Part shown: piece by piece, positions 1 to 17,513 of the stretch
Position numbering within the stretch: the first letter of the stretch is position 1
Layout of the letters: each line of letters starts with the position of its first letter
From: Candidatus Heimdallarchaeota archaeon
GTDB lineage: Archaea > Asgardarchaeota > Heimdallarchaeia > Heimdallarchaeales > Heimdallarchaeaceae
DNA length: 17,513 nucleotides
Direction: 5' to 3'
Assembly: GCA_018238545.1 (NCBI GenBank)
Contig: JABCTC010000059.1
Coordinates: 1 to 17,513 of the forward strand
The notes under the pieces: generated by a model
The model's database searches: none
What the model saw: only the letters and a program-made list of their open reading frames with translations
What the model was told of the DNA's origin: nothing
Made by a program: the position numbers and the translations under genes

Positions 1-677
1 AGTTTGGCTAGAAAGGCTTGTTGCCTCTTAGTCACTTGGGGAGTAGTAGCAAAAGCATTGTTGTAAAAGAACAGTGCGTCATCTATCGCTTGTACTATCT
101 CTTGTTGTGTTATTGAGGGGAGGAAGGAATTGAGTTTCAAATGATTTGAACCATAAATTGCTTTCTTTTTCTTTCTCCAATATCCATCTGTTTGTTGCCT
201 AGTACTGGTTAAGAGGTTGATAACGTACCTTCTTTTCAGTTTCCAATAGTTCCCTAAACTGCTTTCAGCATAAGGTGATCTACCAAAGATCATCCATTCC
301 ACAAGTTGTTGAGGGTTCTTAGAAAGGAAATTGAGTAATCCTTGCACTTTTTGTTCCTTATCTCTTTTCCCTTTGATTGCTATATGCAACCAATGGAAAG
401 CACTCTCCGCTATATCAGGACTCTTCCCCACTTCTTTACATAGTTGACGGGTGAAGAACCTTTCCTTAGGGTTGGATCTGTATAACGTTTCTGCTTTCTT
501 TACTATTTGCGGAGAAAGGAGGAGCAGTTGCCGTTCTTCTAGTTTTCTTATCCTTCGGTTGATCTCTTCTCGTTGGTGCTGGTCTACACGTTTTAACGCA
601 ACCTGGTAGCTGCGCATCACTGTCTTTGAGTGATGGTTGACAGCTACTTGTGCTTTCTTTGTTGCTTGTGAGACCAT
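1..677 (-). CDS. TnpB-position protein of the IS607 element, 3'-partial (at least 225 aa), putative RNA-guided nuclease N-terminus
   Basis: Hand translation from ATG 677, preceded by SD-like GAAGGTGA, gives MVSQATKKAQVAVNHHSKTVMRSYQVALKRVDQHQREEINRRIRKLEE...QQAFLAKL with no stop before base 1. It is absent from the ORF track. It is K/R-rich and VMRSYQVAL resembles the first TnpB beta-strand. No RuvC motif lies within the window. Confidence 0.6.
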   Translation of the reverse strand, partial: MVSQATKKAQVAVNHHSKTVMRSYQVALKRVDQHQREEINRRIRKLEERQLLLLSPQIVKKAETLYRSNPKERFFTRQLCKEVGKSPDIAESAFHWLHIAIKGKRDKEQKVQGLLNFLSKNPQQLVEWMIFGRSPYAESSLGNYWKLKRRYVINLLTSTRQQTDGYWRKKKKAIYGSNHLKLNSFLPSITQQEIVQAIDDALFFYNNAFATTPQVTKRQQAFLAK

Positions 678-725
678 TGTCTTCACCTTCTTATCCACAG
701 AATGGTATATAAACGCGAAGAAAAG

Positions 726-1316
726 TCAGCTAGGAGGAGCTTTCCCTCTCCTTTGCCTGTGTAATCTTCCAGCAAAGGAGGTTACTAAGGCAATTATATC
801 TTCCACCAATCATTCCTCCTTCGAGGTACTTTGTTGGTTATGTATAGTAATGATGTTTGTGGAGAAAGTTTGACAGTAGTGACTGATTACTTTTGTTCCA
901 AACCTTGCTAGTCTATCTTCATAGGTACAGATGATGGCAAAAGGGCTAGTTGTTGCTACCTCATTCAATAATCTCTGCAACCCTTTTCGTTGTTCATTCA
1001 TCCCTGAAGCAATATCAGCAAACATTTTCTCCATTTTCCATCCTTGCTGTTTGGCAAACTTTTGCAGTTGTTCTTTCTGCTTCTGCAATTCTTTTCTTTG
1101 CTTCGTTGCACTTACTCTCACATATCCAAGCACAATTTTCTTTTGTTTCCTTCCCCCTCTCACTTTTTCTCCATTTATCGCTTGAACAAGTTTATATCTT
1201 CTATGTCCTCCCCTTGTTCTTCGCTCTGGTAAGAACTTCTCTTCCTTTTCCCATCGTCTTAACGTACTAGTTGACACTCCTTGTAACTTTGTTGCTATCC
1301 CTATTCTCACTAACAT
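726..1316 (-). pseudogene. tnpA: IS607 TnpA serine recombinase with an in-frame TGA at 810-812
   Basis: It has the HTH GVSTSTLRRWE..RTRGGHRRY, the catalytic GYVRVS, and DIASG and EDRLARFG motifs. After KEE-TGA the same frame continues LVEDIIALVTSFAGRLHRQRRGKAPPS-TGA(726-728), the canonical IS607 TnpA C-terminal helix, for 196 codons in total. Confidence 0.9.
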
Positions 1317-1585
1317 ATGCTCTCTTCATTATTTTTGCTCAAAATTTTTCCCCTCCTCCCCCCTCATAACAAGATTGGGTAAGTTTTTACTCATCAGTTG
1401 ACTACGGTGCATACAATTTAGTGGTTAAGTTGAGGGATAGCGAAATGCATTTCCCGAGTAGGGCTTGATTTTATTGTTGGACATCTACTTAGCAGAGACT
1501 ATAGACCACCCATCAAAAAACTGGTTCTTTTTTCAAATTTTTGGAGAAAAATCAATACATTAAAAACATAATTTCTCTCTCATCG

Positions 1586-1660: not shown

Positions 1661-3709
1661 ATGAGTAAAGAAAAGTGGGTAGTGACAGCAGCTTGGCCTT
1701 ATGTGAATACTGTTCCACATTTAGGAACAATGTTACAATTGCTGAGTGGCGATGTTATAACAAGATATCGAAAATTAAAGAAAGATGAAGTTGTATACGT
1801 AAGTGGTTCAGATGCTCATGGTACACCAATTGTAGTAGCAGCTGAAGCAGAAGGAATTTCCCCAAATGAGTTAGCGTTGAAATATCATAACAAAATAGTT
1901 CAGCTGTTAGCTGACTGGAATATTGATTTTGATAAGTATACAATAACAACAAACCCAACCCACATTTCATATGTACAAGGATTACATAAAAAAATCCATG
2001 AAAATGGATATTATGTTTTAAAAGAATCAGAACAATATTATTGCAATCACTGTAACAGATTCCTTCCAGATCGATTTGTTGAAGGCACTTGTCCTCATTG
2101 TGGAATAAAGGATGCAAGAGGAGACCAATGTACTAATCATGAATGTGGAAAGGTGTTAAAACCTACAGATCTCATTGATCCATATTGTTCAACCTGTTCC
2201 AATGTACCTGTTCTGAAAAAAACAAAACATTGGTATTTTGATTTACCAAGATTGGCGGATGACCTCAAACAATTTGCTGAAAATAATCCTCATATACCAC
2301 CATTTGCTAAACAAAAAGTACTAAGTATGATTGAAGAAGGGCTCATACAACGACCTGTTTCAAGAGATTTATCTTGGGGGATATCAATAGCTCCTATCTT
2401 TGGAGAAGAATTCAATGATAAAGCCCTTTACGTTTGGTTTGAAAACGTTCTTGGATATGTTAGTACAGTTAAGTTAATTGCTGAAGAACTTGGGAAACCT
2501 GAGATGTTTGACGAATTTTGGCTTGATAAAAAAACAAAAACTGTTTTTTGTATAGGTAAAGATAACATCATATTTCATGCTTTGTTATTCCCTGGAATGT
2601 TAATTGCATCTAAAGATTCTTACCCCTTACCTCATGCTATAGCGACAACAAACTTTCTAATGTTTAAGGAAGGACCATTTTCAAAATCAAAAGGAATTGG
2701 TATTTGGGGGGATGAAGCAGTAGCAACATTACCTGCAGATTATTGGCGTTATTATCTTATGATAAATAGACCCGAGCTCAAAGACTTTTATTTTGACTGG
2801 GGTGAATTTGCATCGACTGTGAATAATGATTTAAATGATGTACTGGGGAATTTTATTCATAGGATTACTATCTTTATATCTCAACATTTTGACGGAAAGA
2901 TTCCTAAGAGAGGAGAGTTGAAGAAAGAGGATAAGGATTTGCTTTCTCAAATAGAGAATAACATTCAGAATTATAAAGATGCTATGGAAAACTTCAAACT
3001 GAAAGATGCTACCTCAATTGCGATAAATGTTGCTAGACTTGGGAACCAATACTTCTCAACAACACAACCTTGGCATTTAATAAAAAATGATAAGGAGAGA
3101 ACCGCTACAGTACTTAATCTTTCAGTTAAATTATCAGAGATACTTTCCATTCTACTATGGCCTATTATCCCAGCAACAGCTGAAAGTATTTGGGAAGTAC
3201 TGGGATTTGAAGGACTTCCAGTAAGTAATGGGATCGATGAGATAGATTTAGCAATCACTAATGAAAATCAGATAGTTAAAAAATCCAAACCTGTCTTTCA
3301 CAAGATAAAGGGTGATGAGGTTAAGAAGAAACTAGATGAAGTACGCAGTAAAACAAAAGCACAAAAGAAGGATGATAAAAAAATGAATAAAATAAGTTAT
3401 GATGAATTCAAGAATGTTGAACTGAAGATTGCAACAATAATCGGCGCTGAATCTCTAGAGAAAAGCCGAAATCTAATCAAATTACAGATAGATTTAGGGG
3501 AGGAGAAAAGACAGATTCTAGCAGGAATAAAACAATATTATTCTCCAGAGGATCTCGTAGGAAAGCAAATTGTGGTTGTTACTAATCTAAAACCAGCTAC
3601 TTTGATGGGCGAAGAGTCTGAAGGCATGCTTCTTGCAGCTGATATTGATGGTGAACCCATAATATTGCATCCAGATAAAGATGTACCACCTGGAACAGGA
3701 GTAAAATAG
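1661..3709 (+). CDS. metG: Methionine--tRNA ligase with C-terminal tRNA-binding (Trbp111-like) domain
   Basis: It has TAAWPYVN..PHLGT (HIGH variant), SGSDAHGTPI, a Cys-rich zinc knuckle, RDLSWGI, LYVWFE, IGKDNIIFH, FSKSKG (KMSKS variant) and a C-terminal OB domain (VVVTNLKPATLMGEESEGMLLAA). An AAGGAG SD is present. Confidence 0.98.
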   Translation: MSKEKWVVTAAWPYVNTVPHLGTMLQLLSGDVITRYRKLKKDEVVYVSGSDAHGTPIVVAAEAEGISPNELALKYHNKIVQLLADWNIDFDKYTITTNPTHISYVQGLHKKIHENGYYVLKESEQYYCNHCNRFLPDRFVEGTCPHCGIKDARGDQCTNHECGKVLKPTDLIDPYCSTCSNVPVLKKTKHWYFDLPRLADDLKQFAENNPHIPPFAKQKVLSMIEEGLIQRPVSRDLSWGISIAPIFGEEFNDKALYVWFENVLGYVSTVKLIAEELGKPEMFDEFWLDKKTKTVFCIGKDNIIFHALLFPGMLIASKDSYPLPHAIATTNFLMFKEGPFSKSKGIGIWGDEAVATLPADYWRYYLMINRPELKDFYFDWGEFASTVNNDLNDVLGNFIHRITIFISQHFDGKIPKRGELKKEDKDLLSQIENNIQNYKDAMENFKLKDATSIAINVARLGNQYFSTTQPWHLIKNDKERTATVLNLSVKLSEILSILLWPIIPATAESIWEVLGFEGLPVSNGIDEIDLAITNENQIVKKSKPVFHKIKGDEVKKKLDEVRSKTKAQKKDDKKMNKISYDEFKNVELKIATIIGAESLEKSRNLIKLQIDLGEEKRQILAGIKQYYSPEDLVGKQIVVVTNLKPATLMGEESEGMLLAADIDGEPIILHPDKDVPPGTGVK

Positions 3710-3910
3710 AAACTCCCTATCTCCCATTGGTTATTGTATTATCTCTGAAATAGCAATTGGGGACGTTTTCAGCGCTTAAGATTGAGTTTATCGCCATGTT
3801 TTTACACTGAAGAAGTATATCAGCAAATTATGTGGAAACAGACAAGTATATTTCCCTAATATTACACTTCTTTTAAATAGAAAATGAAAAAGTAGCTTAG
3901 GTGTAAAAGA

Positions 3911-4066
3911 ATGAAATTAGTAACAGTCCATCTTCCTGATGAATTCCTTCATGATTTAGATGAATTAGTCAGATTAAAGAGATATCCCAATAGAAGTGAA
4001 TGCATAAGAGTAGCAATTCGTGATTTATTAAAAGAAGAGATGTGGAATAAAAACAACGCTTTCTAA
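3911..4066 (+). CDS. Ribbon-helix-helix (CopG/Arc/MetJ, CdrS-like) transcriptional regulator, 51 aa
   Basis: Hand translation gives MKLVTVHLPDEFLHDLDELVRLKRYPNRSECIRVAIRDLLKEEMWNKNNAF. It has the alternating beta-strand, LDELV helix and YPNRSExIRxAIRDLL motif, with AGGTG upstream. It is too short for the ORF track. Confidence 0.9.
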   Translation: MKLVTVHLPDEFLHDLDELVRLKRYPNRSECIRVAIRDLLKEEMWNKNNAF

Positions 4067-4127
4067 TCTTCACATCTAATCTTTTCTTTTTGAGCTTTCT
4101 TATGATTATTTTGGATAAAAACAGTTT

Positions 4128-4766
4128 TTAGAAATGAATTTGAAAAGTTCTTATCATTTTTTCTCCAATGGTCAAATTAGTTCCTTCCCCAGTGGTTTTT
4201 CGTTTTCTTATAGCTTCTAAGAGATCATCAACTGTTCCCATTTCTTCTGTACAAGCCGCGTATGCCATTCCTATGTCCTTTAGTCTATGTGCATCGCTTC
4301 CTCCAGTTTCGGGAAGATTGTACTCAATGGCCATTTGTTTTGCTTTCGTGTTAAAAGATTTTATGGGGCATGATCCATTTACAGTCTCTACAGCTATCTT
4401 TTTCAAATTGTAGATAATCTTGCCGATCCCCTTGCGAGTAAAATCAAAAGGATGAGGTATTGTGGCCAGTCCTCCCAAATCAATAATTTTTTCAACAGTT
4501 TCTTCAGGACTTAACCTTTTTTCAATTGTTTCTTTTATTCCAAGTCCTATTACGTGACCTTTTTTAGTTGAAATTTCAACACCTGGTATTATTAACAAAC
4601 CATCAATTTTGAAATTCTTTTGATGAAATCTAGCGCTATTATGATCTGTTATAGCTATCCCGCTTAATCCATTTTTTTTAGCAATTTTGAGAATGTCCTT
4701 TGGATCGCTTTTACAATCATTTGAAAACCAACTATGAACGTGCAGATCATATCTCTTATCATTCAT
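4128..4766 (-). CDS. PHP-domain metal-dependent phosphoesterase
   Basis: Motifs DLHVHS, AITDHN, PGVEIST..GHV, PHPF and GGSDAH. Its ATG directly follows the dim2 TAG. Confidence 0.93.
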   Translation of the reverse strand: MNDKRYDLHVHSWFSNDCKSDPKDILKIAKKNGLSGIAITDHNSARFHQKNFKIDGLLIIPGVEISTKKGHVIGLGIKETIEKRLSPEETVEKIIDLGGLATIPHPFDFTRKGIGKIIYNLKKIAVETVNGSCPIKSFNTKAKQMAIEYNLPETGGSDAHRLKDIGMAYAACTEEMGTVDDLLEAIRKRKTTGEGTNLTIGEKMIRTFQIHF

Positions 4767-5414
4767 CTACGATTCATCTTCTGCTTCTTCTTCAAAGACT
4801 ATTCGTTCAACTTCATCTAAATCAGTCATAGAGGCTATTGCTTCTTCGTCACCGTGAGCTATCCACAATTTATCTTGATCACTTTTAAGATCCCTCATCT
4901 TCTCCTCTAAGTACTTGTAAACAGTACTGTGTTTAGAACCATTTATTAGTCTAGTAAGTCCGTCTCTCAGAATTTTTAACTTACTGAATTCTGATATTAT
5001 TCCTATGGTATTGCCAAAAACTGATACGTGAGCACCTGTTATTTGCTCTATAATGTTCCTTGTTCTCCCATTTTTACCAATAACCCTTGATCGTACTTCT
5101 CTTAATGTGTTTGGAGAAGTTCCTACAAGGTCTCGGAGTTGTATTATATCAAAACCCCAACTAGAATCTTTAATCTGAAAAGCTTTCTGAGGACTGAACC
5201 CTCTCCCAACAGCTTTAACCATATCTCTTGCGCGCCACATATTAACAGGATCTTCAGAATCTTCCTCTATTGTGATGATGACATCTCCAGTCTTACTGTC
5301 TATCATCAATTTACTTTCGGTTAATTCTTCTATCCTCTTCTTAGTGCTTCCTTTCGGACCTATCAGTACAGCAATCCTTTCCAATGGGATTCGTACTAAA
5401 AATTCGCTTGACAT
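4767..5414 (-). CDS. dim2: KH-domain pre-rRNA processing protein Dim2/Pno1
   Basis: Two GxxG KH motifs (LIGPKG, RVIGKNGRTR), AVGRGFSP and GSKHSTVY, located downstream of rio1. ATG 5414 with GGTG upstream is preferred over TTG 5426. Confidence 0.93.
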   Translation of the reverse strand: MSSEFLVRIPLERIAVLIGPKGSTKKRIEELTESKLMIDSKTGDVIITIEEDSEDPVNMWRARDMVKAVGRGFSPQKAFQIKDSSWGFDIIQLRDLVGTSPNTLREVRSRVIGKNGRTRNIIEQITGAHVSVFGNTIGIISEFSKLKILRDGLTRLINGSKHSTVYKYLEEKMRDLKSDQDKLWIAHGDEEAIASMTDLDEVERIVFEEEAEDES

Positions 5415-5426
5415 AGTTAACACCAA

Positions 5427-6227
5427 TTATATTTCCAATAGTTGTATTTTAGGGCTAGGGGGAGAATCTGTTATTTGTTCATAAAGTTCTTCATTTGGGA
5501 GTATTTCTACACCGAGAGAACTGAAATAGCGGTTAATATTTTTTATGTCTCTAAATAGAAAAGCTGCAGCATAAGGATGGTCAAGCAACACAGCTTGTGA
5601 AACATCAATAAAAACTGGATTTTGCTTCAACATTAATATATTGTACTCACTCAAATCAGCATGAATTAATCTCGCATCTTCATACATTTTTGTCATATAG
5701 TCCAGTACCTTCGCATATAATTTATGAGGTTTCTTAACTTTACTATCCTTAAGAAGAGGGGCGGCCTTCTCATTCTTTCCTATAAACTCCATAACTAGAA
5801 CATTTTTCTGTATAGCTATAGGTAGTGGAGATCTCACGCCAATTTTATTCATCCGTTTAAGATTCTTAAATTCTTTTTTAGCCCAAGTATAGATGAACGA
5901 ATAAGTTCCTTTTTTGTAGTTTTTAAAACGAGGATCTCCCTGAACATATATCCAGTTCTTCTTAAATTCTGCAGAAGCTGTTCGATATATCTTAATTGCA
6001 AGTTCCTCTTTTTGCATTCCATAACCATGATACACATTAGCTTCTTTTCCAGTAGAAACACAAAAACCAATGTCACTTAAGATCCCAGAATTCATCATTT
6101 TTACTATAAGCATGCTTGTTTGAAAATCAAATACACTCTCAATTGACTTTAGAGTATTGGAATCCTTCTCCCTAATACGACTCTTGTCTATTTTTTGGTC
6201 AATGGAAGCTATCTCTTTATCAGACAT
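5427..6227 (-). CDS. rio1: RIO1 atypical Ser/Thr kinase (small-subunit maturation)
   Basis: The RIO1 signature STGKEANVY, plus AIKIYRT, WAKKEFKNLKR, LIHADLSEYNIL and IDVSQAV. Confidence 0.96.
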   Translation of the reverse strand: MSDKEIASIDQKIDKSRIREKDSNTLKSIESVFDFQTSMLIVKMMNSGILSDIGFCVSTGKEANVYHGYGMQKEELAIKIYRTASAEFKKNWIYVQGDPRFKNYKKGTYSFIYTWAKKEFKNLKRMNKIGVRSPLPIAIQKNVLVMEFIGKNEKAAPLLKDSKVKKPHKLYAKVLDYMTKMYEDARLIHADLSEYNILMLKQNPVFIDVSQAVLLDHPYAAAFLFRDIKNINRYFSSLGVEILPNEELYEQITDSPPSPKIQLLEI

Positions 6228-6356
6228 TTTTTCACAATTCCTGTTTTTTTAATGAGAGTGCGCATAGGGCTCTTAGGTATGGTCATCAATGGAGGAGATG
6301 AGGTGGAACCATAATCTCAATAGTAATACAATAATTGCAATAAATAAAACTATTGC
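6228..6356 (-). promoter_or_regulatory. Putative rio1 promoter and structured 5' leader with two short uORFs
   Basis: A TATA-like TTTTATTTA sits inside the inverted repeat GCAATA/TATTGC (6337-6356). A GC-richer self-complementary island spans 6253-6319. uORFs 6312-6286 and 6286-6209 are joined by TGATG. Confidence 0.4.
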
Positions 6357-6416
6357 TTAATCAAAGACAATTTACACGTTAAATTAATTTATCTAAGAAA
6401 AATGGAAAAAGAATAT

Positions 6417-6791
6417 TTACAGAACAAATTCTTCTGGAATATGTTTGTTGTTTATTAGCCATCTTACTTCATTTTTTCTAAAGCGATGTACTAATTCACC
6501 TTTTTCATCAGGTTTCATTCCATATAGGGGCATTATAATGACCACGTCTCCAACTCTACACCACATTCTTTTCCTGTATTTACCTGGAATACGGATTTGC
6601 CTTGTAAAACCATCTAAACATTTCACAAGCAAAATACTTGCACCAAGAATTTGGAGAACGATTCCGAAAAATTCTCCTTCTTTAGGTAACTGTGCTCTAA
6701 TGGCATCAGAATCAGCTGTTACCCAACCTGAATATGTCCTTTTATATGGTTTTTTCTTGCCCTTTGTCGGTTTCTTTTTCTTTTTACTCAA
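6417..6791 (-). CDS. eif1a: Translation initiation factor aIF-1A
   Basis: LPKEGEFFGIV..LGA...VKCLDG.TR..RIPGK.RKRMW.R.GD.V is the S1-like aIF-1A pattern. It has a TTG start with GAGG upstream and lies in the conserved aIF-1A/rio1/dim2 order. Confidence 0.93.
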   Translation of the reverse strand: MSKKKKKPTKGKKKPYKRTYSGWVTADSDAIRAQLPKEGEFFGIVLQILGASILLVKCLDGFTRQIRIPGKYRKRMWCRVGDVVIIMPLYGMKPDEKGELVHRFRKNEVRWLINNKHIPEEFVL

Positions 6792-6920
6792 ATATAATCC
6801 TCATTACTAAAAAGAAGAAGGGCTTAAAATATTTTGTTGTTAAGCTGAAAATATTGAGAAAAGAAGTTTCAAACGAAACAAACAAAAAGGTAAGAGCTAA
6901 AAAACTCTTGAGGCAATAAG

Positions 6921-7331
6921 ATGGAATATGATGAATTATTCGAAAGAGCAAGAAAACACCTCCCAGAAAAAGTGTTCGAACAATCAAGATTCGAAATTCC
7001 AACCATACATTCAGTAATTGAAGGAAATAAGACCTTTATAGTTAATATCAGAGAGGTTTTAGAACGAATTAATAGAGAAGCAAACCATTTTCTCAAATTT
7101 ATGGCTGGAGAGTTAGCTGCTTCAGTTACAATGGAAGGCGCTCGTGCAGTATTTGCTGGAAAACATGCCAAAACAACACTCCAAACACTCCTTGAGAGAT
7201 ATGTTAAAGAGTACGTTAATTGCGCAGAATGTGGAAAACCAGATACTCAGTTGGTAATAGAAACAAGAATTCTAAGAAAACGCTGTGATGCTTGCGGTGC
7301 AACGATGTCTGTTAAACCTTTACGAAAATAA
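6921..7331 (+). CDS. eif2b: Translation initiation factor aIF-2 beta subunit
   Basis: YDELFERA..LPE, RFEIP, EGNKTFI.N, and the zinc ribbon YVNCAECGKPDT...CDACGA. Confidence 0.95.
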   Translation: MEYDELFERARKHLPEKVFEQSRFEIPTIHSVIEGNKTFIVNIREVLERINREANHFLKFMAGELAASVTMEGARAVFAGKHAKTTLQTLLERYVKEYVNCAECGKPDTQLVIETRILRKRCDACGATMSVKPLRK

Positions 7332-7353
7332 ATCAAAAGTGCGAGTGATTTTT

Positions 7354-7671
7354 ATGTCTTCTTCCTTTTTTATTAAAGTAATAAAGCAGTCAAGAGAAAG
7401 GCTAGTTGCCGCATGTGATGAAGAAATTATGGAAGTGGAACTCTTAAGCCATGGAGTTAAGATTAAGGCTAGTAAAACTTTCTATGGCATTGAACTAGTT
7501 TCTGCAGATGAATTATTGGATGAAGTTAAGAGAAGCACATCTGTTAATGTAATAGGAACAAGAGCAGTAAACCTTCTTATAGAAAACCGGATTATTCATG
7601 AAGAAGCAATTTTATGGTTTGATCACCCTGACAAAAAGACGAAAGTTGGCCATGCGATGATGTTAAGATGA
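7354..7671 (+). CDS. DUF424 family protein
   Basis: LVAACDEE, FYG, SVNVIG.RAV and a terminal HAMM, in the known aIF-2beta/DUF424/NMD3 neighbourhood. ATG 7354 with GAGTGA upstream avoids overlapping aIF-2beta. Confidence 0.85.
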   Translation: MSSSFFIKVIKQSRERLVAACDEEIMEVELLSHGVKIKASKTFYGIELVSADELLDEVKRSTSVNVIGTRAVNLLIENRIIHEEAILWFDHPDKKTKVGHAMMLR

Positions 7672-7716
7672 ATAAGAAAAGGCTTATTTGGGTTAAGGAA
7701 AAGATTTATTGTAAAG

Positions 7717-8823
7717 GTGAGTAAGATTTCTGAAAGAGGACGATTTTGCGCCGTATGTGGTACTATGGATAAAATACTTCTTGACAACTTGTGCGAAACA
7801 TGTTACAAGAAAGAACACCCTCTTGACATTGAACTATTAAAAAGTCTGAATGTTGAAATATGCATCGATTGTGGTGTCCTCAGAGTTTTAAACACACGTA
7901 TAGACCCACATGTGAGGGAGGAGAACCTGGAAGAGGTTATAAGAGAAGTTGTAAGAAGTGCTGTTTTATCTAAATTTCACTCTGCAGACCCCTATGAAGC
8001 TGAATTTGAAGATGATATAGAAAATGATAAAATCATGAATTATGGTGTTAAATACTTCGAACTTAAAACAAAAATCATTTTGCAGCCACATGAAGAATTT
8101 TCTCCCTTCGAGAAAGATTTTGTCACTAGACTGAAAATGAAGAGAACTATCTGTAATGATTGTTCATTGTATAAATCTGGTTATTTTGAAGCTATTCTGC
8201 AGGTTCGAGCAGATAAAAGAAGATTAACAGATGATGAATTAGACAGATTTGAAAATCTCATCAATGATATGATGAAGCAACATGAAGATTCTAAACTATC
8301 TTACATATTAGATATAAAAGTTGAACCCGATGGTATTACTGCTCAAGTGAGTACAAAAATACTAGCTTCAAATTTAGCTAGAGAGATAAGAGCACAAACT
8401 GCAGGAAAACTTTCTACTGCATACGAACATAAAACAACATCAAAAGATGGAACAGAAGTCTACACAAACACTTACCTTGTCAGATTGCCTGCATTTGGTA
8501 ATGGTGACATTATTAATTTTGAGAAAGAAATCTGGAGAGTAAGAGCAATAAACGATGATCAAGTTAGATTAGAATCTCTTACAAACCATGAGGAAAGAAA
8601 GGTTGTACGAAAGAGAGTAGAAATCAGCGCTAAAAAGAGGAACGATGAGTTAGTGCCTCGAGAATATATGTTAGTTTCAACAGAAGGTCAAACCGTAGTT
8701 ATTATGGCAATGGACAACTATGAGAACTTTGATGATAATTTGGAGAGGTTACCTAAAAATAAAGCAATAGGCGAAACCATCAAAGGATTTCTACTGGATG
8801 AGAAAAATTATTACCTTGACTAA
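7717..8823 (+). CDS. nmd3: NMD3 family large-subunit maturation protein
   Basis: Four CxxC pairs (CAVC, CETC, CIDC, CNDC), SGYFEAILQVRA, TYLVRLP and a C-terminal SH3/OB-like region. GTG start. Confidence 0.92.
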   Translation: MSKISERGRFCAVCGTMDKILLDNLCETCYKKEHPLDIELLKSLNVEICIDCGVLRVLNTRIDPHVREENLEEVIREVVRSAVLSKFHSADPYEAEFEDDIENDKIMNYGVKYFELKTKIILQPHEEFSPFEKDFVTRLKMKRTICNDCSLYKSGYFEAILQVRADKRRLTDDELDRFENLINDMMKQHEDSKLSYILDIKVEPDGITAQVSTKILASNLAREIRAQTAGKLSTAYEHKTTSKDGTEVYTNTYLVRLPAFGNGDIINFEKEIWRVRAINDDQVRLESLTNHEERKVVRKRVEISAKKRNDELVPREYMLVSTEGQTVVIMAMDNYENFDDNLERLPKNKAIGETIKGFLLDEKNYYLD

Positions 8824-11733: not shown

Positions 11734-11902
11734 TTTTATACATCTTACATAATTTCCTTTGGTATATTATCACTAATTTAGTGAAACTTTTTTCGAGTTA
11801 ATTCGCTGAAAATTTATATATTACATTCTACTATTGTTTTCTGGTAATTACTTACTAAGCTTTCAATATTATTATTCAAAGTTGATGGTGAAAAAATTGG
11901 AA

Positions 11903-14830
11903 ATGAAATTCAATAAAAACTCTCTTCGTGTCATTTTTACAGTTTTTGTAATAATGATTCTTGCAAACCAAATTGTACCTCTTAATGCAGTTAAACCTGA
12001 TAATATACCTCCCATTGTAACTATTCTTACCCCCTCTGATGGAGCAACTGTTAGTGGTGCCGTATCAATAAGTTTTGAGGCATATGATCAACAAAACTCG
12101 ATAAAGGAACATGGTATTAGAATTGATGGTGTTACAGTTATAACCTATTCGTATATGTATTCTTGGGATTCCACAACTTATTCAAATGGTTCTCATACAA
12201 TCGAAGCTTATGCTAAGGATAAAACTGTAGAAGGTACAGATTCCGTAGTTGTAACTGTTTCTAACGGAGGTTCTGGTGATACAACCCCCCCTGTAGTCAC
12301 TATTACTGCTCCAAACGATGGTGCTACCGTTTCCGGAACAATAACTATTTCTGTTTCTGCTACTGATGAAAATGGAATAGACATACAATCCATATTTATT
12401 GATGGAATCTTGGTGGCTAGTAGTTCTTCCTATTCTTGGGACACTACCTTAGAACAGGATGGGTCACACATTATTCGAGCTGAGGCAACTGACCCCTCCT
12501 CTAATTTAGGGCTCGATAGTATTTCTGTTACAGTGAACAATTCCATCACTGGTTCTCCTTTCAAAGTAATGGCATACAACATAAAAGAGAGTGGTGAATC
12601 TTCAACTCATCCAGATTGGAAAGATGTGGTATATGAAGAAAATGCCGATATCCTCATTTTTGTTGAAACAGGTTATTGGGACGATAATAGCAATGCTAAA
12701 CTTGACCAATATGTTGCAGAATTTAATGCTTACTTCTCCAGTGAGGATCCATACGTCGGTTATACCTTACAGGATATTAGTTACAGTACAAGTGGTGCTG
12801 CAATACTTAGTCGTTTTCCAATTTTGGAAACTAATCAACTTCTGACCGTTCCTCTTGATGATAGTACAAATTATGATGTTACTCATGATTTCTTACATGC
12901 TATAGTCAATGTTTATGGTGCCCCCATCCATATGATTGGTTCTCATCTTAAGGCTATGACGGGTGCAGATAACGAGCAAAGACGTGAGTGGGAACAAGAA
13001 GGCATTATTAATTATATGGATAATCTTGGTTCAGTTCCCATTATGTATATGGGTGACCTCAATTCTTTCAGTCCAGAGGATTACACACTCAATACACTTC
13101 AGAGTGGTTTGGGTTATGGTCCTTGCTCTATGTTAGTTCCCCCCTATGTTAATCCTGAAACTAGCGAAGATTTCAGTCAATATCAATCAGCGATTCATGA
13201 TTTCACAGATGTATTCAGAACATTACATCCAACTGATTTAGGAATCACATCTCCTGATTATGATTCGAGAATAGATTATATCTATGTAAATCAACAACTC
13301 GCTTCTTATATCCTAAGTTCTACAACTGGTGATACTGCACACGCTTTAACAGGATCAGATCATCTTTCTGTCGATGCTATTATTGATTTAAGTGGAAGTG
13401 GTGGAGATTTCATTCCCCCCTCAGTTACAATAACAAATCCTGTCGATGATTCTATAGTTAGCGATTCAATTACTATCACAGTAGATGCTACTGATGATGA
13501 TAGTGTGGTATCACAAAAAATACTCATAGATGGAATTGAAGTGTCAACAGGTTCTTCCTATGTCTGGGATACAACTGCTTATTCAGAAGGTATCCATACT
13601 GTAAGAGCAGAAGCAACAGACCCATCATCAAATGTTGGTATTCATCAAATTTCTGTAATAGTTGATAATGATGGTGTTGTAGCTATTCCTTCTATGGTAG
13701 TCATCAATGAATACCTTCCAGATCCCTTTAGTCTCTACACTGAAGAGTGGATTGAACTGTATAATCCAGTAGGTGAGGAAATAGATCTTTCTGGTTGTAA
13801 ACTTGATGATCTTATCGGTGGAGGAACTTCAGCCTATACTCTTCCTGGTGGAACCTTAATACCAGCAAATGGTTATCTTGTTTTGTATCAGTCAACAACT
13901 GGTATTTATTTGAACAATGCTGGTGATGATGTTAACTTTATTGATACAGATGGTTCTACTATTATTGACTCTCACACATATTCTAGCAGTGCTGATGACA
14001 CTTCCATAGGCCGAGAGACTGACGGTGCTTCTACTTGGACTACTTTTGCTATTCCAACCCCTGGTGCTGCGAATGATGGTGGTTCATCTAGTGGTGATGT
14101 TTTTGACATAATCATTAATGAATACCTTCCTGACCCATATGTTCTATATTCTGAGGAATGGATAGAGTTGTACAATCCTTCGGTTGAAGATGTTGATCTT
14201 TCAGGATGCGTGTTAGATGATCTTATCGGTGGAGGAACCTCTGCCTATACTCTTCCGGGTGGAACGATAATTGCCGCTGGTGGATACTTGGTGTTTTATC
14301 AGGGTACAACTGGTTTAGCTCTGAATAATGATGGTGATGATGTTAACCTTTTAGCAACTGATGGTTCTACACTTATTGACTCCCATACATATTCCAGTAG
14401 CGCTAATGACATCTCCATAGGTCGAGAGACTGATGGTGCTGCTACTTGGACTACTTTTACTACTCCAACCCCCGGTGCTACAAATGGAGGTACTTCAACT
14501 TCAGAAATTCATGTTCATTCAATCACAGTAACCCATATACAGGCTGGACCTCCAAATAATCCAAAATACACTGTGATTGTAACAGTTTCTGTGAGGGATA
14601 GTGATGAAAATGCAATAGCTGATGTTTTAGTGACAGTTGAGTTAACACTTCCTGATAATTCAAAAATAGTTCTAACTGCAACTACTAATGCAGAAGGAAT
14701 AGCCAATTTAACGTTTGCAAACATAAGACAATCGGGAACGTTTATTGCAACCGTGACAAATTTAGCTAAAGATGGATGTTTATATCATCCTGCATCAAAT
14801 GTGGAAACATCAGAACAATATGTAATCTAA
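11903..14830 (+). CDS. Secreted multidomain EEP (endonuclease/exonuclease/phosphatase) enzyme: signal peptide, Ig, Ig, EEP, Ig, lamin-tail domain x2, C-terminal beta-sandwich
   Basis: Signal peptide MKFNKNSLRVIFTVFVIMILA. DxxPPxVTIxxP Ig repeats start at 11999, 12278 and 13406. EEP motifs are MAYNI, DILIFVE, HLKA, MGDLNS, RIDYIYV and SDHL. There are two INEYLPDP..EEWIELYNP...LNN.GD.V..PTPGA.N domains. ATG 11903 follows GGTGA; ATG 11885 is an alternative. Confidence 0.88.
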   Translation: MKFNKNSLRVIFTVFVIMILANQIVPLNAVKPDNIPPIVTILTPSDGATVSGAVSISFEAYDQQNSIKEHGIRIDGVTVITYSYMYSWDSTTYSNGSHTIEAYAKDKTVEGTDSVVVTVSNGGSGDTTPPVVTITAPNDGATVSGTITISVSATDENGIDIQSIFIDGILVASSSSYSWDTTLEQDGSHIIRAEATDPSSNLGLDSISVTVNNSITGSPFKVMAYNIKESGESSTHPDWKDVVYEENADILIFVETGYWDDNSNAKLDQYVAEFNAYFSSEDPYVGYTLQDISYSTSGAAILSRFPILETNQLLTVPLDDSTNYDVTHDFLHAIVNVYGAPIHMIGSHLKAMTGADNEQRREWEQEGIINYMDNLGSVPIMYMGDLNSFSPEDYTLNTLQSGLGYGPCSMLVPPYVNPETSEDFSQYQSAIHDFTDVFRTLHPTDLGITSPDYDSRIDYIYVNQQLASYILSSTTGDTAHALTGSDHLSVDAIIDLSGSGGDFIPPSVTITNPVDDSIVSDSITITVDATDDDSVVSQKILIDGIEVSTGSSYVWDTTAYSEGIHTVRAEATDPSSNVGIHQISVIVDNDGVVAIPSMVVINEYLPDPFSLYTEEWIELYNPVGEEIDLSGCKLDDLIGGGTSAYTLPGGTLIPANGYLVLYQSTTGIYLNNAGDDVNFIDTDGSTIIDSHTYSSSADDTSIGRETDGASTWTTFAIPTPGAANDGGSSSGDVFDIIINEYLPDPYVLYSEEWIELYNPSVEDVDLSGCVLDDLIGGGTSAYTLPGGTIIAAGGYLVFYQGTTGLALNNDGDDVNLLATDGSTLIDSHTYSSSANDISIGRETDGAATWTTFTTPTPGATNGGTSTSEIHVHSITVTHIQAGPPNNPKYTVIVTVSVRDSDENAIADVLVTVELTLPDNSKIVLTATTNAEGIANLTFANIRQSGTFIATVTNLAKDGCLYHPASNVETSEQYVI
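13703..14491 (+). repeat. Intragenic tandem duplication of the lamin-tail domain (about 13703-14080 and 14114-14491, period 411 nt)
   Basis: Long shared nucleotide tracts occur in both copies, e.g. GATGATCTTATCGGTGGAGGAAC, GCCTATACTCTTCC and GGTGATGATGTTAAC. Confidence 0.9.
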
Positions 14831-15891: not shown

Positions 15892-16119
15892 TTGAATCAC
15901 AATTAGTACACTTACAAAGTGAAAATACATAAACGTTATTTTCGCAATGTTTTTTATATTTTAAATCCAACTTCATAATAGTTCTCAAAATGTGGTTAAG
16001 ATTAGCAGTGAATTGAAATTGGTTAGATGATAACAATGACTCTGACTCTGGAGCAATGAGCTTTTCTTTCACATGAGAAAAACTTCCTCCCTCATTCAAT
16101 CTTGAAATGCAAAGTTTTA

Positions 16120-17513
16120 TTATATTCCATTATTATAATTTGAATAAATTAAATTCCGCACAATATTATTATATACTGCATTGCCATCAAGATAAATCCC
16201 ATAAACATTCTGATTAATATAATTGGACTGTATTATATTATTATCTCCATCACTAATATAAATTCCATAATTTTGGTTTGTTCCCCAGATGTTATTTGTT
16301 AAAATATAATTATTATCTGCATCATCAGAATTAATGTATATGCCATAATCCTCATTTGAATAAATTGTATTTTTAGCAATATAATTGTTAGTTGCTATAC
16401 CTTTAAGTAATATTCCATGTATGTATTTTGTTATTTCCAATTCTCTAATGATTATACTGCTTGCATTTGTAATGAAGAATCCATGATTACTTGTCAGAGA
16501 ACCAGTCATAACAGGTGGATTGCTATTTGTGAGAGCTGTAAAGACCATATATCCTGTATTTGCATTGGAATAAATCTCAACTGTTTCAGAATAAGTTCCT
16601 GGGAAGATGTAGCAGGATGCAACAGTGCATGTAGGCAATCCAACCGACATAACATCAGCAGCTTTCTGGATGGTCTTGAATGGTTTAGCAAATGTGCCGG
16701 CAAAAGTGTTGCTTCCGCTTGTATCATCAACAAAAAATGGGCCATTATTAATTGCTGTAAAGCCTGATTCTTTCCATCCCATATCAATCCCATCTCCATT
16801 AAAGGCTTCAGTATAATAGTTTGTACCAGTATCCACAGCAGAGCTTAAGGCGGATGTTATAATAAATGAAGTAGTGGTTTCAATCATTGGATCCTGAAAC
16901 GTATTTCCTTGCCCCCAAGTTAGACTCCCATTGGTTGTTCCATTTTGATTTCCATAGATGCAGTTATAGGCCACATAAACAACTCCTGTGGATGTTCTGT
17001 TTATTCCATAATCATCTCCATTTCCATTTGAAAGGATAATGTTGTTATACATTGTTCCACATGATGTTCCACTCCATAATACGCCATCGCCAAATGCAGA
17101 GCCAAATATTGTATTATTTATAATTTTCATGTTGGTAGAGTTAAAAGATAATTTTATTCCATTGGTTGCATTATTATAAATTAAATTTCTATATATTTCA
17201 TTATTATTTCCACCTGTGATAATAATTCCAGAATCCTGACTTTTCCCCCATATTATGTTAGATGCTATATAATTATTATGCGCATTAGTTGAATTAAAAA
17301 ATATACCACCATCATAATCGTTTGAGTAAATTGTGTTTCCTGCAATATAAGTGTTTGTTGCGGTATATCGCAGTTGAATACCTGTATAATGATTTTTGTA
17401 GAACAAGTTAAATTTGATGATAGTATTATCTGCATGGTCAATTCGAATACCATCATCCTGAAAGCCCCCTCCATACGCAGTGTTACTTATAATATAATTG
17501 TTATCTGCCTCAT
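16120..17513 (-). CDS. Right-handed parallel beta-helix (PbH1/NosD-like) repeat protein, 5'-partial and apparently 3'-truncated
   Basis: Repeats of GIxx...NNyI..N.I..N, with an internal DUF1565-like motif FVDDTSGSNTFAGTFAKPFKTIQKAAD. The frame stays open from 17406 to the window end (EADNNYIISNTAYGGGFQDDGIRID...). It ends at ..NNGI-TAA-TAA. Confidence 0.85.
   Translation of the reverse strand, partial: EADNNYIISNTAYGGGFQDDGIRIDHADNTIIKFNLFYKNHYTGIQLRYTATNTYIAGNTIYSNDYDGGIFFNSTNAHNNYIASNIIWGKSQDSGIIITGGNNNEIYRNLIYNNATNGIKLSFNSTNMKIINNTIFGSAFGDGVLWSGTSCGTMYNNIILSNGNGDDYGINRTSTGVVYVAYNCIYGNQNGTTNGSLTWGQGNTFQDPMIETTTSFIITSALSSAVDTGTNYYTEAFNGDGIDMGWKESGFTAINNGPFFVDDTSGSNTFAGTFAKPFKTIQKAADVMSVGLPTCTVASCYIFPGTYSETVEIYSNANTGYMVFTALTNSNPPVMTGSLTSNHGFFITNASSIIIRELEITKYIHGILLKGIATNNYIAKNTIYSNEDYGIYINSDDADNNYILTNNIWGTNQNYGIYISDGDNNIIQSNYINQNVYGIYLDGNAVYNNIVRNLIYSNYNNGI

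Follow-up and report, generated by a model that had tools for sequence, protein, structure and literature searches.

The closest described counterparts of the locus analysed here are found among IS607 TnpBs, Cas12f nucleases, TnpBs with rearranged RuvC sites and pro-Fanzors. In CboIStron, an IS607 IStron, TnpA targets TGGG; this sequence is also the TAM, and the right end of the element reads differently (10.1101/2023.11.20.567912). The TnpB clade RIIIr-4, some genes of which are linked to RHH/MazE, carries a His in place of the RuvC-III Asp and has no zinc finger; conserved rearranged RuvC sites were inferred to stay active, altered specificities were suggested for them, and two of the rearranged branches, Ser-6 and RIIIr-6, are nearly confined to archaea (Altae-Tran 2023, PMC10691335). 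Pro-Fanzors are cyanobacterial and have DPG at RuvC-I and an alternative Glu located six residues before the zinc finger (PMC10711439).

The window, that is, the whole stretch of 17,513 nucleotides analysed here, is the complete contig C72 of a 3.6-Mb Heimdallarchaeota genome (G000), with no neighbouring sequence beyond its ends. It carries the 5' part of an element that, like those of the IS607 TnpBs ISFba1 (8iaz) and CboIStron, contains a serine-recombinase tnpA followed by tnpB, a left-junction motif that is the predicted TAM, a dinucleotide core shared by the two junctions, a predicted right-end RNA with the flank as guide, and a TnpB of WED-REC-RuvC-zinc-finger fold. The Asgard family differs from these systems in size (635 aa with a REC of ~270 aa, whereas the 8iaz chain has 384 residues), in its D-E-H site with DxN, in the HxxC first zinc knuckle, in having no intron, and in its motif ACYGT with core GT, compared with TGGG and core GG in CboIStron. 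It also departs from a typical TnpB, with 635 aa versus 300-450 aa, 17-49 bits for NF040570 versus a cut-off of 100, and a score of 12-24 for NF038280 versus a cut-off of 350.

The best sequence and structure matches were Cas12f and the 'derived' NADxN TnpB clade (CnCas12f1, 8hr5; AsCas12f, 8dzj), and the NTHxN of the Asgard family resembles NADxN with Asp changed to His. The family shows only 11-16% identity to them, a predicted guide RNA from the transposon end and a larger REC, and as an HMM score NF049972 (Cas12f) reached 25-39 bits against a cut-off of 450. No cas genes were observed among the called neighbour genes of the listed loci, in a search that covered gene calls. The Asp-to-His change is already known in another TnpB clade, since RIIIr-4 has the same RuvC-III His, but the Asgard family has a zinc finger and an IS607 tnpA. 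The family could be the Ser-6 or RIIIr-6 branch of Altae-Tran 2023, with which it was compared by description only. Its likeness to pro-Fanzors and Fanzor2 is the IS607 association, whereas DxN instead of DPG, the canonical Glu532, the RuvC-III His and the archaeal hosts set it apart; it is neither a pro-Fanzor nor a cargo gene. No description of this TnpB family was found in a literature search; two papers on Asgard mobile elements mention neither TnpB nor IS607, and a 2026 survey of archaeal IS does not mention TnpB.

The IS607 element and its ends

The tnpB frame was located on the minus strand from the ATG at 677 to base 3, where it exits the contig end. This piece (3..677) comprises codons 1-225 of about 635, covering the first strand of WED and the greater part of the enlarged, helical REC. 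As a sequence-only reading of the window had described, at least 225 open codons lie 3' of tnpA and their product is basic, with 41 K+R against 18 D+E. The 225-aa piece had no real family match in Pfam and NCBIfam searches. The frame is far beyond chance, because it has 111 homologues and shows a dN/dS of 0.13-0.20 against three same-genome paralogues. Upstream, a Shine-Dalgarno-like GGTGA (683..687, minus strand) was located 5 nt before the ATG, and GTG at 698 was excluded as the start because the paralogues carry an in-frame stop just upstream. An archaeal TATA-like box (TTTATATA; 706..713, minus strand) lies ~30 nt before tnpB; by a loose pattern, 43 of 47 related loci have it at the corresponding position, and it is retained in tnpA-deleted copies. 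From the box and the ribosome-binding motif we infer that tnpB probably has its own promoter.

The IS607 tnpA, with HTH and serine recombinase regions, was identified at 730..1316 on the minus strand (NF033518, 131 bits, cut-off 110), and its read-through end is separated from the tnpB ATG by 52 nt. The window copy contains a premature TGA at 812-810 (codon 169), where the intact C102 paralogue has CGA (Arg), and thus encodes 168 aa rather than 196 aa. The remainder of tnpB was traced to another contig of the genome. The left flank of the window element is continuous with the flank of the right end at the C43 start in the empty alleles of three close relatives, and C43:1-775 is therefore the 3' part of the window copy, encoding residues 409-635 (open) and the right end. 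Residues 226-408 fall in the unassembled gap between C72 and C43.

Alignment of other genomic copies, which the sequence-only reading had proposed, defined both ends, the target motif and a predicted ~95-nt right-end RNA. The left end was placed at 1317..1403 (minus strand), of which 1362-1403 is retained in tnpA-deleted derivatives on C71, C106 and C7. It is preceded by the host-derived target motif ACCGT (1404..1408, minus strand), the predicted TAM, the last GT of which recurs at the right end. Left junctions consisted of ACCGT or ACTGT after unrelated flanks, giving the family consensus ACYGT, and right ends consisted of GTGCGT or GTGTGT followed by unrelated flanks. Within one genome, 27 right ends had 27 different flanks, and the insertion site of the window copy is empty in three close relatives. 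When a loose left-end pattern was applied to the genome, 21 of its 35 matches followed ACYGT and 3 followed a one-base variant; the remaining 11 are probably chance.

The target motif is assigned to the host because empty alleles carry exactly five bases between the flanks. Exactly 5 host bases were observed in five filled/empty comparisons, one allele being exactly ACTGT, and at eight sites that are filled elsewhere and empty in G000 there was A at -5 in 7/8, C at -4 in 5/8 and a pyrimidine at -3 in 7/8. Several empty alleles deviate from ACYGT at 2-3 of the 5 bases, and ACYGT may be looser than the consensus or partly templated by the element. Terminal inverted repeats (AC...GT) were rejected as element ends, since the first five bases occur in empty alleles. 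GT was found at both junctions, the joined flanks were colinear with empty alleles, and no longer target duplication was observed, so that GT is the probable recombination core. ACYGT, with core GT, is predicted to be the TAM by analogy with the IS607 IStron, in which TGGG serves both as the target of TnpA and as the TAM of TnpB.

G000 also contains derivatives with internal deletions, as well as a miniature element of ~330 bp in which both ends are kept (C102:49318-50270, C51:3050-3383, C71:1-1084, C106, C7, C10 and C40). The C102 left flank and the C106 right flank are adjacent in three relatives; in C106 this may reflect chimeric assembly or a genuine rearrangement between copies.

Elsewhere in the window, reading by eye showed that 1661-8823 contains metG, a PHP hydrolase, a Dim2/Pno1-like KH protein, RIO1, aIF-1A, aIF-2 beta, DUF424 and NMD3, an ordinary archaeal translation cluster of host genes. 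Also by eye, a secreted-looking 998-aa protein (11834-14830, plus strand) was seen to contain Ig-like repeats, an endonuclease/phosphatase-type domain and two lamin-tail-like repeats. The beta-helix repeat protein at 16100-17513 (minus strand) has a deviant composition, exits the other contig end and may be acquired or mis-binned.

The TnpB family and its RuvC site

The homologue search returned 111 proteins, most of which were 620-650 aa and many of which contained the zinc ribbon PF07282; all named ones belonged to Heimdallarchaeota. Open copies in the same genome encode 635 aa (C106) and 647 aa (C71 and C82), and the length estimate does not depend on the C106 copy. Genome scanning gave 76 loci, whose informative names were Heimdall-group except for one Thorarchaeota and one Promethearchaeati. 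When 1.84 billion representatives were searched with a profile, 268 relatives with lengths of up to 1784 aa were obtained, and the named distant members were Heimdall-, Odin- and Lokiarchaeota. The added length of the longer distant members lies before RuvC-I. An IS607-type recombinase adjoined 3 of the 7 distant members looked up. A link to aCas1 was also sought, but the genes called around seven distant members included no Cas1 family. Among same-genome copies dN/dS was 0.10-0.20 in both protein halves, and tnpB was open in many loci with tnpA partial or undetected. In the ESM Atlas only generic TnpB/Cas12f-like clusters were found.

Relatives of 1200-1800 aa include P0136, P0149, P0167, P0175, P0179, P0215 and P0262, and those that were aligned keep D-N-(E/D)-H. 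Near P0262 lie two genes, one with a Piwi domain and one with a Schlafen domain (L176).

AlphaFold was run on a 93-sequence alignment with P0002, a homologue 87% identical to the window piece, as the query. The resulting model (pLDDT 87) contained a strand at 19-29, helices only at 33-305, WED strands to 405 and RuvC from 429, which is the WED-REC-WED-RuvC-zinc finger layout of TnpB and Cas12f. The TnpB-like first strand and helical remainder noticed in the sequence-only reading are thus borne out, with only helices following the strand up to residue 305, as is the absence of a RuvC-I motif from the first 225 residues: in the model, the helical REC region of ~270 aa displaces RuvC-I to D433. 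REC conservation was 0.72-0.79, versus 0.75-0.81 in the rest of the protein, and residues 19-310 folded alone from one sequence gave a pLDDT of 46. An interpretation of REC as three HTH repeats was discarded, as there was no profile similarity.

The structure comparison with TnpB, Cas12f and Fanzor suggested by the sequence-only reading placed Cas12f and TnpB structures on top and Fanzor2 lower. The best matches (Foldseek, VIA), over residues 19-632, included AsCas12f (8dzj, Z 13.6), ISFba1 TnpB (8iaz, Z 12.8, rmsd 5.9, 340 aligned) and ISDra2 TnpB (8h1j, Z 12.0, rmsd 4.7, 334 aligned); over the top Cas12f/TnpB matches, 334-349 residues were aligned with an rmsd of 4.7-5.9. Fanzor2 (9b0l) aligned with Z 10.7, about 2-3 Z units below these structures. 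Nearly 300 residues of the model have no counterpart in the matched structures, and judging from the secondary structure they would be mostly REC.

The conserved motifs are GxDxNR at RuvC-I (D433, N435), E532 at RuvC-II and NTHxNAA at RuvC-III (H617), the last of which aligns its His with the catalytic Asp of the Cas12f NAD; the active site was placed by the secondary structure of the model. An HxxC-CxxC zinc finger (H588, C591, C607 and C610) is also conserved. Of the two features that the sequence-only reading had named for checking, the zinc finger is therefore present, and the typical D-E-D triad is absent and replaced by D-E-H, the trait that most sets the family apart and that is encoded beyond the contig end. 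D433, N435, E532 and H617 were invariant in 93/93 close homologues. In 50 distant members (18-44% identity, 584-1352 aa), D433 and N435 were found in 50/50, an acidic residue at 532 in 50/50 and H617 in 48/50. The canonical ligand here would not be His; DEDH Argonautes provide a precedent for His as a metal ligand, and by analogy His617 may be the third metal ligand of the RuvC site.

Homologues, model, structure matches and profile search together uphold the proposal that the gene encodes an oversized TnpB in which the REC lobe is expanded, from a distinct lineage in an Asgard host. The family is an Asgard-centred TnpB lineage with an enlarged REC and a D-N-E-H RuvC site.

Predicted right-end RNA and proposed function

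Approximately 95 nt ending at the right end were conserved in the IS607 branch and in a sister branch, with a sharp conservation boundary followed by variable flank. They contain a 6-bp hairpin and a 7-bp pseudoknot in which the loop pairs with the bases just before the right end. When covariation was counted over related sequences, 96.6% of the cells of the hairpin and pseudoknot were paired and 39 cells were changed on both sides, compared with 12 in shuffles, a control that gives support and not a probability, and with 0-3 in slid controls. The right end is thus predicted to encode a structured guide RNA of ~95 nt, and no family matching it was found in Rfam. In the window copy, the loop of the hairpin (on C43) is the consensus loop inverted over 9 nt, and the pseudoknot should be weaker as a result; this inversion and the tnpA stop suggest that the window copy is decaying.

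The locus is an IS607 insertion sequence that likely encodes a 635-aa RNA-guided homing nuclease with a His metal ligand, a reading in which the cutting is what we infer. TnpA, which would now act in trans given the broken tnpA here, would excise the element as a double-stranded circle and insert it into ACYGT at the GT. Together with ~16-20 nt of right flank, the RNA of the right end would guide TnpB to the empty allele, that is, ACYGT followed by the flank, which TnpB would cut with His617 as the third metal ligand. Repair of the cut from the element-bearing copy would then retain or spread the element, and the element would escape its own nuclease because its right end, GTGYGT, lacks the AC of ACYGT. 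The architecture, ends, target motif, mobility and RNA structure signal were read from the sequences, and the remaining steps are modelled on IS607 biology.

It is possible, though in our view unlikely, that the protein binds without cutting, in the manner of TldR, with the His marking nuclease loss and guided binding helping the element, perhaps by labelling empty sites or by bringing in TnpA or repair. No member has the third catalytic Asp, a large REC lobe could bind tightly, and the guide of the sister gene L055 matches its own tRNA-Ser gene at 15/15; that match, however, is adjoined by ACCAC instead of ACYGT and ends at 15 nt. The other two acidic residues and the His are near-invariant over deep divergence, and dead sites do not usually stay so. 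Loci at tRNA-Cys with tnpB never exceeded 14/17 to their own tRNA, and one without tnpB reached 16/17, a contrast that is no more than suggestive. TldR-like repressors have a degenerate RuvC and a fixed, conserved guide and do not move, whereas the IS607 branch is mobile, its RuvC site retains the D and the E, and its guides number 27, all different.

Retained activity with altered chemistry, as in an enzyme that nicks, needs Mn, works slowly or takes another substrate, would fit the two linked changes (DxG to DxN at RuvC-I and His at RuvC-III) and the altered specificities proposed for such sites by Altae-Tran 2023. The element and RNA layout is nevertheless that of ordinary homing TnpBs, and we consider this quite improbable. 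The link to Fanzor2 implied by the sequence-only reading did not hold: an Asgard relative of the Fanzor ancestor, to which the IS607 association, the Asgard host and the alignment to 9b0l at Z 10.7 would point, is highly improbable, as the family is without DPG, has the canonical RuvC-II Glu with Tyr at the alternative-Glu position, and matches Cas12f/TnpB structures about 2-3 Z units better, and pro-Fanzors are cyanobacterial. Hardly any weight is left for a non-TnpB cargo gene or a frame ending soon after the window, both raised by the same reading, although the 225-aa piece itself had no Pfam or NCBIfam match. Full-length homologues carry RuvC-I, -II and -III and the zinc ribbon, as does the 3' half on C43, which is open; the 111 homologues, mostly of 620-650 aa, also speak against a standard TnpB of ~400 aa.

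Natural copies allow the protein, the TAM, the compact RNA scaffold and the boundary of the guide to be predicted, which makes activity directly testable; the literature searched contained no assay of any TnpB or Cas12 that has His at RuvC-III. The family shows a TnpB that, within a transposon and with no link to CRISPR seen, reached the size of a Cas12, and thereby bears on REC expansion in Cas12. It also constitutes an active IS family of large size in those archaea that are nearest to eukaryotes, and has no bearing on the origin of Fanzor.

Sister genes beside tRNA genes

Proteins of the sister branch are ~40% identical to those of the IS607 branch, occur without detected tnpA, and keep D-E-H and the pseudoknot. 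In the tree, the IS607 branch of the window formed a supported clade whose closest relatives were tRNA-anchored genes; the tree, a quick one with midpoint rooting, gives no order of events. Unlike the IS607 branch, the sister branch has fixed guides. Many of its genes adjoin tRNA-Cys, -Asn, -Ser or -Pro genes, with guides resembling the antisense of an arm of the adjoining tRNA type. Sister tnpB loci beside tRNA-Cys (L146, L155, L063, L066-L068, L070 and L082) have guides that resemble the D-arm of other tRNA-Cys alleles, and solo copies at tRNA-Asn, -Ser and -Pro (L055, L060-L064, L069, L072, L073, L117-L121 and L127) have guides to the tRNA type that they adjoin. L061 and L069 have a common guide, which matches a nearby repeat.

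At tRNA-Cys, the gene and guide were present in 11 of 22 genomes of the genus, and the five bases beside the matched site start with ACY in 11/11, a separate hint at the TAM. Guides matched their own allele at 8.5-14/17 and the best foreign allele at 14-17/17, the latter being a best-of-many comparison; the mean own-allele percentile of 0.34 is no more than suggestive of self-avoidance. The D-arm had 17 different alleles in the 22 genomes, a count that stands by itself with no control tRNA for comparison. Viral contigs contained no relative and no exact match to one tRNA-Cys guide. A joint reading is tentative and rather doubtful as a whole: the family would be an undescribed, mainly Asgard class of active RNA-guided D-N-E-H nucleases of ~580-1800 aa without CRISPR, and the branches lacking a transposase, which sit at tRNA genes and carry guides fitting other alleles of that tRNA beside ACYNN, would serve as natural RNA-guided drives between alleles or guard integration sites in essential genes.

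Beyond tRNA-Cys (L146-L149 and L156), one or two 3' tRNA fragments and variable cargo were observed, the latter including a SIR2-TPR protein, DUF4145 and DUF4365. No integrase match was obtained among the scanned proteins of these loci, and by its gene content the region appears to be an integration hot spot. The sister copy of G000 at tRNA-Cys is divided between C49:62252-63122, at the C49 end, and C68:51090-52427, at the C68 start. Also on C49, the tRNA-Phe (194-267) and tRNA-Pro (about 28110-28190) genes are both broken in the T-loop, with a similar short tail ending in TTCAGATGC, which would represent a T-arm intron or another insertion.
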